From: Okamejei kenojei
Lineage: Eukaryota
Reading direction: 5' to 3'
Assembly (NCBI GenBank): GCA_035221665.1
Contig: CM069135.1
Span: 89,962,001 to 90,026,000, forward strand
Length of the DNA: 64,000 nt
Shown here: piece by piece, positions 7,065-62,478 of the stretch
Layout of the letters: each line of letters begins with the position of its first letter
Position numbering within the stretch: position 1 is the first letter of the stretch
Translations under genes and position numbers: made by a program
Notes under the pieces: model-generated
What the model saw: the letters and a program-made list of their open reading frames with translations, nothing else
Databases searched by the model: none
Told to the model about the DNA's origin: nothing

Positions 7065-7188
7065 AAAGAAGGAACTGCAGATGCAGATCAGACTGAAGAA
7101 GAATTTCGGCCCGAAACGTTGCCTATCTCCTTCGCTCCATAGATGCTGCTGCATCCGCTGAGTTTCTCCAGCATTTTGTGTACCACAC
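7065..7188 (+). mobile_element. Mini-Penelope terminal insertion with a hammerhead-like core
   Basis: CTGAAGA at 7093 and GAAACGTT at 7113; stem II partly mutated. Flanked by an imperfect repeat of gatatttaaa..gtta. Confidence 0.75.
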
Positions 7189-8353
7189 GATATTTAAAGG
7201 TTAGAGATGTCACCGCGTTTCGATAATCGACAGTGTCCTTCTGCTGAGTTCAAACACAGTTATTCAGCTGCTTATGTCTACACGAGCTCATTTAATACGT
7301 TTTGTCACGTTTAATATTTAATGATTGATATTTGTGAGACTTCGGTTATGTGGGATGTTATTCGGAATTCACGATACATTCTGCCAACGGGTCTGCCCCC
7401 TCCTCCACCCTCCAGTTCAATACCACGATCTTTACGAAGTGGTTACTTTATGGGGGGTGGTGGGAGGGGGGTCTCCACGTTACAAAATATAGCATAAATA
7501 TACATCGAAACACAATTCCGCTGTAGATTAAAAGTTGGACGGAAATTCTGTCTTTTTCAGTGAGTCTCCTGTAATCCGAGGGAATTTCTGTTTACTCTTC
7601 AGTCCCGAAACACAGATTAATCAGGTTTCGTAGAGTTTGTCAATCCAATTTCCCCTGGATTTATAATTATCTGTGCATTTGGGAGCTTTGGAGAAGCGAG
7701 ACTGTGATTAATGGAATTCTATGGAGCTCAGTGCTCGCCATGTGCGCATCCCCAGGGAGAGGATCTGCCTGTCAGAGAGAGCAACACAACCCACAACTCA
7801 CTGGGATTTGGGCAATAATTATCACATGGAGAACAAGAGGGAAAACTACCTTTATCTCATGCACGGGCCGCAAATAGCACCAGGAGGGTCTCATGCACAG
7901 TGGCGGCTGTAGTACCGAAGGTATATCTCTCATTTATTACGAAATTATTCGCACGGCCAAATTTAGAACAAGTAGATGGTTAAAATGAAATGTCATAATT
8001 GAATTTCACAGATGGTAAAAAAAACACGTAATTTTTTATAACAAACATAGTTCACTTTTCGCGACTAAATTATATCCCCACAAATGCCACCACAAATAAA
8101 GCAAAAACATTACAAATGCTGTTTCCACGAGAGTCTCCGGATCTAAAACAAAAGAAAAGCTTGGAATCATATTTTGAAGAAATGTCCTTTACCGGTACAT
8201 TTATTAAACTGCACATTATCACGTGCAATATTCTTCAGTATTCACTGAATATAATTACATGAACGACACTCTGCTTTAACCCTTAGTTTTATTTTCATTG
8301 ATATCAACTGCATGTACTATGAATGGATTTACCCGGAGAGCAGATACTAAAAT

Positions 8354-8560
8354 AAGGCAGACACAAAATGCTGGAGAAAGTCAACAGGACAGGCAGCATC
8401 TCTGGAGCGAAGGAATGGGTGAGATTTCGGGTCGAGACCCTTCTTCAGACTCGAACGTCACTCATTCCTTTGTTCCAGATATGCTGCCTGTCTCGATGAG
8501 TTACTCCAACATTTTGTGTCTGTCTAGGATTAAAACTAGCATATGCAGTTCCCTCCTATC
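8354..8560. mobile_element. Inverted mini-Penelope insertion
   Basis: Two pLTR segments in inverted orientation. TSD cagatactaaaat (8341-8353) / cagatattaaaat (8561-8573). Confidence 0.8.
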
Positions 8561-9394
8561 CAGATATTAAAATTAATTGTTTTGCACCGATTAATTAATT
8601 TTAGTCGCAATTTCCAAACTTTTTTTAATTAGAAAGAAGTTTGAATTCACGTGGTCGTAATTCCAGCCAAACGCCCTGTGTTTTATTTAATGTAGCTTGA
8701 TGATGTATATAGGAAAACAACGCGTGAATATGGAGGCAATGCCGGTGCCGGCCGACGTTTTATGTTAACACGCTGCTTGTGCAGATTAATTGTAAAGAAA
8801 TGGTCTAAAACGATGTCAAGCAAATACAAAGCAAATCTTTCAGCTGGTTCTGTGTGTCAGTATCCCGCCTCGACTCTACCTCACGAACCAATCATTAGAA
8901 ATTGGTACAAAGTCCCTCTAAATCCAGCTCTTCGATTTGCTGCGATGAAAACTGTAGAAAATGTTGCTAATATCCACTGGTCTGGAAAGAGTTAATACAG
9001 GAACCTGCAACAAAAATCGCACGCAGCTTTTTCACAGGCGAGCTGTCAGTGCACAGAACTGGGAAAGTTTACAGATCCACAAAGTACGCCTTTCTTACGA
9101 ATCAGATCAGACAATTTTCCTTAAGATGTAAAAATGCACATTTTGCTCCACATTCTCCCTCGTATTCTGCAAATTTATGAGTTAATATTTTTGCGACTTG
9201 CCTCAAATATTACTTCTGGCTGGTCAAATCAAAGCATTTGACTTTATTCCACTGGCCTGCTCGTTTTGCATTTTTTTAAAGCTAAAAGCAGGAGTTATTT
9301 TTTGAAAATACTGACAGGTGTTGCAGCATTCAAACGTGCAACGTGGAAGTGATTTTTTTTTGAGGAGCATGTTAATGTGTCCAAATGAAAAATT

Positions 9395-9600
9395 GACTGA
9401 GAGCGAAACTCAGCAGGTCAGGCAGCATCTGTAAAGGGTAATGGATAGGCGACATTTCGGGTCGGGACCATTCTTCAGACTAATAGGGGTCCGACTCGAA
9501 ACATCGTCTGTCCATTTCCCTCCACAGATGCTGCCTTAGTTCATCCGTCAGTTTGTTATTTTTGATTAAGGTCCCAGCATCTGTAGTATTCTTTGTCTCC
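9395..9600. mobile_element. Inverted mini-Penelope insertion (older copy)
   Basis: actcagcaggtcaggcagcatct...tttcgggtcgggaccattcttcagac followed by the inverted gactcgaaacatcgtc...agatgctgcc. Confidence 0.75.
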
Positions 9601-59444: not shown

Positions 59445-60400
59445 GAAATCAAATCAAATTGCCATCATATGCACAAGTATAATGAAGTACAATTAAAACC
59501 CTGCTTCAGGCAGCATCACAAGCACATAGATTCGGACATAAAAACATAAATTATATATCAAATAAACATAACATTTCTTAAATGAAGAATACTGTTCAAG
59601 GAGAGAAGAATGAGAAAAATACAAGACATTGGTGTGAAACACAAGTAGAAAATACAACAGAAGTAGGAAATAAAACTGTCAATGGTAGTGCAAGAGGTGG
59701 TCATTAGTGTTGTTGAGGTAGGGGTAGGCTTGTGCGGGTTGGATCAGGAAAGTAGCTGTTCCCGTACCTGATGGTGCATGACTTAATGCATCTGTACCTC
59801 CTGCCAATAATAGCAATGAAAACAGGGCATGGCCCAGATGGTGGGGTACCTTGATGGTAGATGCTGCTCTTCATGAAGCAGTACCTCTTATTGATGCTTT
59901 TGATATAGGGAAGAGCTGAGTCTACCACTCGGCAGAATCTTGCAATTGCCATACCAGGCCATGATGTAACTAGTGAGAATACTTTATACAGCACATCTGT
60001 ACAAGTTTGTTGGAGCATTTACTGGCATGCCNNNNNNNNNNNNNNNNNNNNNNNNNNNNNNNNNNNNNNNNNNNNNNNNNNNNNNNNNNNNNNNNNNNNN
60101 NNNNNNNNNNNNNNNNNNNNNNNNNNNNNNNNNNNNNNNNNNNNNNNNNNNNNNNNNNNNNNNATCTAAGTACTAGACCCAGGACAGGTTATCAGAGTCA
60201 TTAACGTCCAGGAATTTGAATCTGTTATCGCGCTCCTTCACCAATCCCCAATGAAAACTTATGCAGTCGCCCAACCTCTTTCCTGAAGTTAATTATTAAT
60301 TCCTTTGTCTTGTGAATCTCAAGTGAGAGGGTTGTTGGTGCGGTACCATTCAACCAAGTGTTCTATCTCTGTCCCATACATTGACTCATCTTCCTCATTC
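59445..60400 (-). mobile_element. Rex1/Babar-like LINE 3' portion (spans the gap)
   Basis: Remnants DESMYGTEIEHLVEWYRTNN.L and GRRYRCIKSCT.RYGNSYFP match Rex1-type RT and C-terminal motifs. Confidence 0.7.
60032..60163. other. Assembly gap
   Basis: Run of N. Confidence 1.
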
Positions 60401-61760
60401 AATGTATTCAAAAACACGGTGACTTTAAACCCTACATTGAGACAGGATAGAGAGTTGGCAGTTTTGCTATAAAAACATAATTTGGGATGATTTATATCAG
60501 CCTCCAACTAGTGAAAGGGCCACAAAGCAATACACTACTTTCAAAGCAGCCACAGAGCTCAATATGATCAACCAATGAAAAAATGTGTTTTATTTGGGTG
60601 TTGTTATCGCAACCCAATGTTATTCAAAAGAGGATGCTTAAATTGGATGAGGAGATAAGAAGTGTATGTCCCATCTCTCTCTCTAGAATACACAACCATT
60701 ATCCGGCCAATTAACCCTAAAGAAATATTTGGGATGGCTAATCTAGTCTAACTAAGGATAACAATGTTCAAATGTTGGCTTGATCTTCATGTACGAATAA
60801 TTGCAAGGGAATATAATCTCTTCGATCCAATTCCAAAACACGAGTAGTATTTTCACTCATGTAGCCGTGAAAGATCAAGCAATCACATAGAAAAAGTAGA
60901 AAAATCTATGAAACCCATCAATTTGCACTTCTAGAGATAATAGAACCACTTACAGCATTGACTACACTATTGAGCAACCAGGAAATTACTTCGGAAAGGC
61001 AAAAACTAAGCTTTGGAAATAGCCTGTGGAAATCCTTTATCTTCCTACAGCAACAGAACTAGACTCCAGTAGTCCATAATTCTTCCAGATTCCACTGATA
61101 ACCAACTTTTTCTCTATAACCGAGAACATTCAAATGGTCTGTCGTGAATTCATAACAAAAGAGAAATTAGTCTGTCTAACAATATTTCCCATCAAAGCCA
61201 ATAACAGATGCCAGCCTGTTGAACATTTCTGGCATCTGCAGTGTTTTGTTTTTCTAATTGTGAGATTATGAGATTATTATTAAGGCATACGCATTATATG
61301 TGTTCTGATCTGAATCACCAAGTCTGGTCCAATAAAGTAAAATGGTTAAACTGGGGGACATTTTTGTGAACATTTTTCTGAATGCTTAATAAGTAATCAT
61401 ATCGTTTATTGACAAGAATACGTATCAGAAAAGTATCAGAAGAGTGATGTCTTCTTGGATAATCTGTTCGATTCTGATGAGGGAATATGTACCATCTATA
61501 ATTTACAGATAGCACCCAACTCCAACTAAAAACCTGGATCAATTGGGAGTAGTGATTTATTTTAGGATATGAAAATACAAGGAATCAGCAGTGTACACAA
61601 CCGTTTTTTATTTATTGACATTGCAAAGATGAACGCACAATGTTTAGATATTTTTTGAAGATTAGAATGCAGTTTCGAAGACAAATCTTCGTACAGTTTT
61701 AACCATTTTGATATTCTAATTACGTTTTTGCAAAAAAAACATTGGGGCATTTTTACTTAA

Positions 61761-61983
61761 GATAGACACAAAATGCTGGTGTAACCCAACGGGCCAGGCA
61801 GCATCTCTGGAGAAGGAGAGGGGCTGGCGTTTCGGGTCGAGACCCTTCTTCAGACTGAGGAAGGGTCTCGACCCGAAACGTCACCAATTCCCTTTCTCCA
61901 GAGATGCTGCCAGTCCCGCTAAGTTACTCCAGCATTTTGTGCCTATCTTCGGTTTAAACCAGCATCTGCAGTTCCTTCCTGGA
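61761..61983. mobile_element. Best-preserved inverted mini-Penelope insertion (back-to-back hammerhead motifs)
   Basis: Arms of about 93 bp around cttcag-a-ctgagg. TSD catttttacttaa (61748-60) / catttttatttaa (61984-96). Confidence 0.9.
61855..61882 (+). ncRNA. Minimal hammerhead ribozyme motif
   Basis: CUGAGGA-A-GGGUC(UC)GACCC-GAAACGUC. The mirror copy on the - strand (61826-53) ends GAAACGCC, so its UH site is lost. Confidence 0.6.
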
Positions 61984-62478
61984 CATTTTTATTTAACAAC
62001 CAAGTATGCAGCACATTTTAGGTTGCACTTGGGATTCCAGCATCAATATATTTATTTGATACTCTAGGTTCATTATCGTTTATAGTCCATTATTGTTCAG
62101 TTAAAATCAACAGCTAAACAAAAATAAATAATTAGATTTGATTAGTGAGCGATCCAGTACATTTTGGTTTCAAAACTTTCTTTCACCTGAAAATCCATAT
62201 TTGAATTCGGTGGTTCACGAAGTTGTAGATTCAGTTTTTGACATCAACATAAACTCACGTTGAGGAGAAAACGCAATGCTACTTCCACTCCACCACTGAT
62301 GCGATGTAACTGCCCACCAAGAGGCCACCTTTTTAATATTCAAAGCTGAGTACACATCGCTGAGTTCAAGATTAGTTGAAATTCTTGTAAATTAATGGTA
62401 AGTTTTTTTTTCCTAATACTTAGCAGATTGAAATATGATGGTGTATCAGCAAACTGTATGGTCCTCTTTCAAGTTTTT

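Follow-up and report, generated by a model that had tools for sequence, protein, structure and literature searches.

What are the many tiny, hammerhead-bearing insertions in the genome of Okamejei kenojei, and how were they made? The question is raised by a 64,000-nt stretch of this genome (assembly GCA_035221665.1, contig CM069135.1, forward-strand positions 89,962,001–90,026,000; hereafter the window, in whose own numbering loci are given), in which a first-pass annotation had listed 12 insertions, each said to consist only of one terminal segment, here called the arm, of a Penelope-like element (PLE). That annotation offered two origins, extreme 5′ truncation or an independent retrozyme-like family, and saw the insertions as potential self-cleaving sites seeded through the genome. 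We find that the insertions are genuine and plentiful by-products of a known retrotransposon and, as ribozymes, nothing unusual; in about half of them the start falls close to one particular base, and a run-off origin of this class is the explanation we lean towards.

The arm is the start of a Penelope-like unit

A profile built from genomic arms and searched across the window recovered 32 arms in 22 loci (the first profile gave 35 matches at E ≤ 1, against one marginal match in the reversed window). The segment was present at all 12 sites named earlier, and ten loci were new to that list (3118, 19652, 21585, 26197, 35953, 38853, 56944, 59191, 63296 and 63710). Positions within the arm are numbered from 0, the A of the AGT directly 5′ of the ribozyme core CTGA; the predicted hammerhead cut falls after +30, and its product starts at +31.

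At locus L129 two tandem units lie 3,958 bp apart, and the open reading frame (ORF) begins with an ATG at +165. From this spacing and the position of the ORF it follows that the arm, which spans positions 0..+95 or 0..+130 of the 3,958-bp unit, is the start of the unit and also the 3′ pseudo-long terminal repeat (pseudo-LTR) of every insertion. The L129 unit also has a short upstream frame of ~57 codons from +52, inside the arm and ahead of the main ATG. The single ORF codes for a reverse transcriptase (RT) with a C-terminal GIY-YIG endonuclease (in the L112 frame, RVT_1 at E = 2e−6 and GIY-YIG at E = 0.001, both slightly under the Pfam curated cut-offs), and the arm lies after it on the same strand. 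A CX4CxxC motif was read in the RT–endonuclease linker of the L111 and L113 translations; in the cited passages of PMC8557442, CX2-5CxxC in this linker is a Neptune motif common to Nematis, and the linker sequence of the parent fits an endonuclease-bearing (EN+) PLE of the Neptune or Nematis clade. Its copies include pseudo-LTRs from partial tandems, inverted copies, an optional tail of 30–40 bp and a target-site duplication (TSD). Older subfamilies carry the same arm behind different untranslated regions (UTRs) and are likewise linked to coding sequence.

Within the window, as had been claimed, the segment ends an RT-bearing PLE copy, an old and 5′-truncated one (32609–33985, minus strand), though the core in its arm (32609–32720) is mutated. 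The RT fragment of this copy, identified by tblastn, is 43–45% identical to the L112 protein over residues 50–428; the protein match stops before the endonuclease, no endonuclease match was found in the copy, and a Pfam search of the window's 173-residue RT fragment returned no family. The Penelope origin and minimal type I hammerhead anatomy proposed at first are supported.

Abundance in the genome

Genome-wide totals were extrapolated from a random sample of 120 evenly chosen stretches, 1,198,500 bases in total, of the 2.76-Gb genome. The sample contained 479 arms, grouped into 383 loci at a density near one per 3 kb (reversed control, 0), and ~3.8% of sampled bases fell within arms. Most loci were single arms (299), with 67 simple head-to-head pairs and 6 plain same-strand arm pairs; the inverted pair, described earlier as the usual form, prevails at most of the 12 named sites and not genome-wide. 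The pair as one fixed family had been an impression from the best 40 of 4,118 genome candidates, which random sampling and young copies overturned. Intact cores numbered 43 per 1.2 Mb, i.e. ~1 per 28 kb and about five times rarer than the one potential self-cleaving site per 5 kb first put forward. Extrapolation gives ~0.9 million loci and ~99,000 intact cores. Exact whole-genome counts for a young subfamily were 22,302 copies from +3, 10,266 of these with 19 upstream bases, and 351 for a word just beyond the tail.

A near-common start base in about half of the copies

The young subfamily was chosen for end mapping because its copy ends are readable to the single base; its loci were taken from the first part of one chromosome. 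Sixty arms were selected by a word downstream of the ribozyme, with a match to about +93 required, and removal of two duplicates left 58 distinct arms for the 5′-end set; a third young variant was used through coordinates only, not as extracted loci. Loci L291, L294 and L295, and likewise L253 and L254, were dropped from counts as duplicates; there the insertion and its flanks are identical at several places on contig C1, which makes them parts of larger duplications.

The 3′ ends fell into two groups, at +92..+99 (33 of 60) and +121..+141 (27 of 60), which correspond to the short end and the tail of known PLEs. Among the 5′ ends, 26 of 58 lay within −5..+10, a density of 3.25% per base compared with 0.09–0.54% in six other intervals. 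Locus lengths concentrated at 85–98 or 123–135 bp in 29 of 77 young loci. From these end and length distributions we distinguish two populations, a fixed-start class and ordinary truncations, and in about half of the copies the start falls on or close to one base. Insertion lengths, named in the first-pass annotation as a check, thus cluster in part, with the remainder spread; extreme 5′ truncation alone, one of its two readings, does not account for lengths that are not continuous and show two narrow peaks superimposed on scattered ordinary truncations. Plain random 5′ truncation of PLE insertions would suit the 30 of 77 young loci that spread from 337 bp to more than 1.5 kb with scattered ends, and very short PLE insertions in Chlamydomonas (median 128 bp) are attributed to truncation in passages of PMC9977147; the stop rate at −5..+10, 6–36 times that of other intervals, contradicts it for about half of the copies, and as the whole explanation it is next to untenable.

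TSDs adjoin the arm within a few bases. Their length is not fixed at 13–14 bp as first supposed: in the young subfamily, TSDs of at least 12 bp, mostly 12–17 bp, were found at 41 of 73 testable loci, against 3 of 200 in the control. Long ORF-bearing copies begin at 0..+18 in four of eight cases.

The base that precedes position 0 was also informative. Among 125 copies that continue upstream, the template has C there in 115, as part of a YCAG conserved in 115–118 of 125 at each of −1, 0 and +1 behind a variable pyrimidine tract. Genome-wide, non-C bases before 0 are G in 899 cases, A in 703 and T in 392, with 498–530 expected for G; among the examined loci, 13 of 22 non-C solos have G (p = 0.0007). 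Single untemplated Gs stand next to TSDs or at junctions in L155, L237, L243, L247 and L266. We take the site at base 0, YYAGTCT, to be initiator-like and the extra G to be a copied cap; a literature search on cap-derived G found no passage.

A run-off origin for the fixed-start class

Our preferred reading, held with moderate confidence, is that roughly half of the insertions are run-off copies, produced by internal priming near the 5′ end of the RNA and copying to its first base. Of two internal sites close to the RNA 5′ end, the PLE reverse transcriptase would use one for priming on nicked target DNA, and synthesis would run off the first base of an ordinary RNA to leave a strong-stop-like dead-end copy. 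Base 0 would be the transcription start, with its cap copied as the extra G, and the remaining copies would be ordinary 5′ truncations of longer read-through RNA. Short copies lack downstream sequence that the enzyme likely needs, and so would not spread on their own; the hammerhead would be carried along passively, with a role in the parent element alone. There are precedents for parts of this scheme: in passages of PMC11167929, the tail of a lizard PLE studied in vitro is flanked by two internal priming sites, both strands are cut and extended, RNA downstream of the priming sites is required and ribozyme cutting is not, and Drosophila virilis Penelope has an internal promoter according to PMC2377424 as cited here.

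Several observations weigh against run-off copying. The in vitro data come from a Poseidon element of a different clade (PMC11167929), and in D. virilis the start lies ~120 bases upstream, with the base before helix I serving as a splice acceptor (passages of PMC4209133 and PMC2377424). The 5′-end peak is ~16 bases wide and 27 of 49 AGT-start solos have the templated C at −1, so that a single sharp start is not established. The G excess is only 1.7–1.8-fold, A is also common, and these counts mix solos with inverted junctions. The site at 0 also reads as a pyrimidine tract followed by YAG. No RNA 5′ end was observed, the public runs being assembled contigs; in those contigs, whose RNA status is guessed, loose ends gather at 0/−1 in four runs from two organisms, which merely mirrors the DNA boundary. 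The young loci, moreover, represent the first part of one chromosome, and most window copies belong to older subfamilies.

The pyrimidine tract also bears on a rather doubtful rival, a truncation hot spot. Here all priming would take place in the 3′ pseudo-LTR of a long RNA, and synthesis would stop or fold back near 0 at a bound protein (e.g. at the pyrimidine tract plus YAG, a possible splice acceptor) or at a small palindrome centred on +2. The conserved YCAG and the many ends that extend to −1..−8 accord with such a barrier; a D. virilis intron ends at helix I (PMC4209133, in part), and palindromes at inverted junctions of rotifer PLEs are interpreted as self-priming in passages of PMC3846280. 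A hot spot does not predict the untemplated G before 0 or the long copies that start there, solos carry no shared upstream exon and have TSDs within a few bases of the arm, and among the 15 joints listed, out of a total of 63, not one can be read as an intron whose end is at +1.

Inverted pairs and short tandems

Young mini pairs, the three-piece L143 excluded, consist in nine of ten cases of one arm ending near +95 and another near +130; all ten include an arm whose start lies at −4..+5, and junctions vary from pair to pair. In 11 of 12 pairs the two arms carry matching variants (p = 0.003), and therefore both arms derive from one RNA or one donor. The pairs fit a scheme in which both nicked strands would act as primers, one at each site on the same RNA, and the cDNAs would be joined by microhomology. 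Fold-back priming (cf. PMC3846280, in part) may be an alternative origin.

Another conceivable origin is an independent, non-autonomous family, similar to short interspersed nuclear elements or retrozymes, in which some short or palindromic copies would be transcribed from an internal promoter and copied anew as units by the PLE enzyme. Fixed lengths and a ratio of short copies to ORF-start copies of roughly 30:1 would be natural for such a family, and non-autonomous PLE derivatives are known (PMC8557442 and bioRxiv 10.64898/2026.07.22.740005, as cited in part). Furthermore, the exact palindrome centre of the pair at 61748 recurs in ~14 of its 29 distinct best matches, as it would in copies of a master, which counts against run-off copying too; because 1.2 Mb of random DNA showed this older centre a single time, we regard the shared-centre count as inflated by the 61748 query. 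Several ORF-bearing PLE subfamilies have short copies of their own, which carry their variants, the junctions differ in 10 young pairs, and the window holds no tandem arrays with one hammerhead per unit. An independent family, the second of the two readings offered at first, is in our estimate quite unlikely.

Of 30 loci running beyond the tail, 19 (17 distinct) have the form of short partial tandems, [a..170–353][c..95–140], which start at +95..+140, run back to a 5′ end and resume at +170..+353. Internal priming, run-off and a jump to the end of a further template would be expected to give this form. RNA beyond the priming site was therefore used, and synthesis can jump. Individual loci deserve mention. 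L239 (G000:C1:76428005-76431043) is a TSD-flanked short tandem with +31, the predicted cut product, as the exact start of both copies, and is a possible trace of ribozyme cutting. L249 and L255 each repeat one PLE junction twice in a row (−28/+306 and −276/+233, respectively), a pattern that a circular template or a tandem donor could leave. In L246 subfamily-variable positions distinguish the two copies of a short tandem, which hints that synthesis jumped from one RNA to a different one.

L239, L249 and L255 are what one would look for if the hammerhead defined the copies, the template being RNA cut at +31, or RNA circularised and copied by rolling circle; circular templates are proposed for PLEs in passages of PMC4209133. 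The interval around the cut site, +26..+35, holds just 3 of 56 arm ends (0.54% per base, close to neighbouring intervals), and cutting is unnecessary in vitro (PMC11167929, in part). Since most copies retain the whole ribozyme, uncut RNA was copied, and a hammerhead-defined origin is very unlikely.

Run-off copying has a parallel in minus-strand strong-stop DNA of LTR retroelements, where priming near the RNA 5′ end and run-off yield a short product of fixed length and longer products need a jump. In the present case, by contrast, synthesis would be target-primed and would use no tRNA as primer, and integration would involve the short product itself. A broader and unlikely proposal is that PLEs replicate in the manner of LTR elements without tRNA, through strong-stop cDNA made near the capped 5′ end and a subsequent jump to the RNA 3′ end. 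The enzyme would always prime near the capped 5′ end of monomeric RNA, on nicked target, and hammerhead cutting of a downstream copy would leave a 31-base terminal repeat to guide the jump. A jump that succeeds would give a pseudo-LTR, failed jumps would account for the short insertions in their hundreds of thousands, and short partial tandems would be jumps onto RNA fragments. Were this true, the PLE hammerhead and the pseudo-LTR would share one purpose.

The ribozyme in dispersed copies

In the column table of 263 arms, the core CUGANGA...GAAA...UH, the extra base before stem II and the palindromic 15.2–16.2 positions are present, as in the hammerheads described in passages of PMC4209133. 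Stem II is better drawn than in the first-pass annotation as 4 bp closed by a YUCG loop, with one unpaired A in front. Of the four cores first listed as full, those at 17626, 22082 and 61855 have a fully paired stem II, while the one at 49045 carries a C-A mismatch there. By our own reading of the table, subfamily variation affects 0 of 13 core and 15 of 60 downstream positions (p = 0.057). Non-CpG core bases mostly show a per-copy identity of 0.92–0.96, equal to that of invariant downstream bases, and core CpG bases have decayed to 0.69–0.79, like other CpGs.

RNA of an inverted pair folds into one hairpin (−145 kcal/mol) in which the cores face opposite ways. The idea of seeded self-cleaving sites is further weakened by this arrangement, with pair cores on opposite strands within a long hairpin, and by CpG decay in the core that equals decay outside it. 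Energy folding of the monomer and of the co-folded dimer gave stem II only and no hammerhead fold, by a method that is not decisive for ribozymes, and an Rfam scan of the window returned no hammerhead family at E ≤ 5. Minimal PLE hammerheads have low activity even as dimers (passages of PMC4209133), and PLE hammerheads may need the element's protein (passages of PMC11167929). As far as their sequence allows us to judge, the dispersed cores are most likely idle; the copies scattered through the genome are probably defunct by-products and not functioning ribozymes.

Loci of the window

Four window insertions have the TSDs claimed for them, of 13, 14, 13 and 13 bp with one mismatch each; at least 13 bp was reached by 4 of 586 random intervals, and the remaining 14 of 18 window loci tested had TSDs of at most 10 bp, i.e. 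at chance level. The best-kept of the four is a head-to-head pair (61748–61996; TSD 61748/61984) with a short minus-strand arm and a tailed plus-strand arm containing the intact core at 61855; the pair folds into one long hairpin. The pair at 8341–8573 (TSD 8341/8561) joins a short minus-strand arm to a tailed plus-strand arm from +21. A composite insertion at 22024–22311, with the 14-bp TSD 22024/22298, comprises an inverted tail remnant, a tailed arm with the intact core at 22082 and a third short arm from +18. The pair at 27565–27842 (TSD 27565/27830) is an exception to insertions being made only of the terminal segment: its minus-strand arm extends 83 bases into the PLE 3′ UTR, a piece 85–90% identical to copies that continue into PLE coding sequence.

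Further head-to-head pairs lie at 17575–17742 (intact core 17626–17653 on the plus strand), at 22333–22551 (tailed minus-strand arm and short plus-strand arm, by profile), and, in degenerate form, at 9403–9587 (by profile), 53411–53585 and 59150–59290, the last very degenerate and newly added to the list. Solo arms with tail were found by profile at 1910–2045 (plus strand, +1..+135, core degenerate) and 16157–16279 (minus strand, +1..+126). A short arm at 3118–3206 (minus strand) has pyrimidine-rich, UTR-like DNA upstream in the element sense and is likely an ordinary 5′-truncated copy. The short sense arm at 7061–7187 (plus strand, 0..+90) is preceded by an inverted tail remnant, and the 10-bp repeat 7050/7189 around it is at chance level. 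Also new are an arm without stem II (19652–19713) and one beginning at about +10 (21585–21668), both on the plus strand. Degenerate arms occur at 38853–38929 (minus strand, by profile) and, within 63296–63798 on the plus strand, at 63296–63393 and 63710–63798.

The short arm at 49013–49136 (plus strand, +1..+90), which contains the mismatched core at 49045, belongs to the young subfamily and stands behind short inverted pieces. Directly after its arm sequence (49043–49136) lies a ~210-bp hairpin (49140–49357) with 88-base arms that are 90% complementary and weak matches to Rfam microRNA families below the gathering scores; it is possibly a miniature inverted-repeat transposable element. A different repeat of ~220 bp (18424–18642, 32361–32584 and 34093–34321) has inverted copies on both sides of the old PLE copy. 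An intronless frame of 418 residues at 39623–40879 (plus strand), with POU and homeodomain regions and runs of histidine and glutamine, is presumably a class III POU gene.

Relation to known elements

The element class, its architecture, inverted ends, tail, TSDs and minimal ribozyme are already known, and the family is probably annotated as Penelope in repeat databases. EN+ PLEs described in passages of PMC3846280, PMC8557442 and PMC8969392 likewise combine an RT with a C-terminal GIY-YIG, form partial tandems and head-to-head inverted ends, and have an optional tail at one end, TSDs of ~8–17 bp and solo pseudo-LTRs. What differs here is that a large share of copies consists of the end piece and nothing else, and that the 5′ end of this piece is nearly fixed; the same passages explain short EN+ PLE copies by truncation, recombination or self-priming. 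A fixed-start run-off class had no prior description that we could find in the literature, a search whose scope left aside Repbase, Dfam, supplements and subscription journals.

Metazoan PLE hammerheads (Cervera and De la Pena 2014, PMC4209133, in part) resemble ours in the CUGANGA core, the extra base before stem II, the G10.1-C11.1 pair, the palindromic 15.2–16.2 positions and the absence of loop III, and in being mostly single motifs tied to truncated PLEs, with some opposite-strand pairs. Stem I is only 2–3 bp and stem II 4 bp in our arms, unlike theirs, and our extrapolated ~99,000 intact cores compare with 4,000–9,000 in coelacanth and Xenopus, counted with a different descriptor. The green anole Poseidon element PAc (Frangieh et al. 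2024, PMC11167929, in part) shares two internal priming sites bounding the tail, cutting and extension of both strands, and uncut RNA as the main template; it belongs to another clade, its ORF starts inside the ribozyme rather than at +165, and run-off copies from its 5′-proximal site are not a topic of the cited passages. Non-LTR retrozymes (Li, Clavereau, Pollet, bioRxiv 10.64898/2026.07.22.740005, in part) are similarly non-coding, hammerhead-bearing and derived from PLE pseudo-LTRs, with many monomers. They form tandem arrays with a type I hammerhead per unit, whereas our copies are solos and inverted pairs with TSDs. A hammerhead in at least two consecutive units, by which non-LTR retrozymes are recognised, was not found in the window, where loci are solos or inverted pairs; same-strand pairs occurred at 6 of 383 random loci.

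Meaning for Penelope-like elements

Much effect of the short copies on host RNA is unlikely. The steps by which a PLE RNA becomes a pseudo-LTR-flanked copy are left unvalidated in the cited passages of PMC11167929. From the fixed 5′ end and the extra G, both the transcription start and a run-off product in vitro can be sharply predicted. The value of these insertions lies in their fossil record: ~0.9 million loci by extrapolation, and a young subfamily with more than 22,000 near-identical copies, marking where reverse transcription starts and stops.

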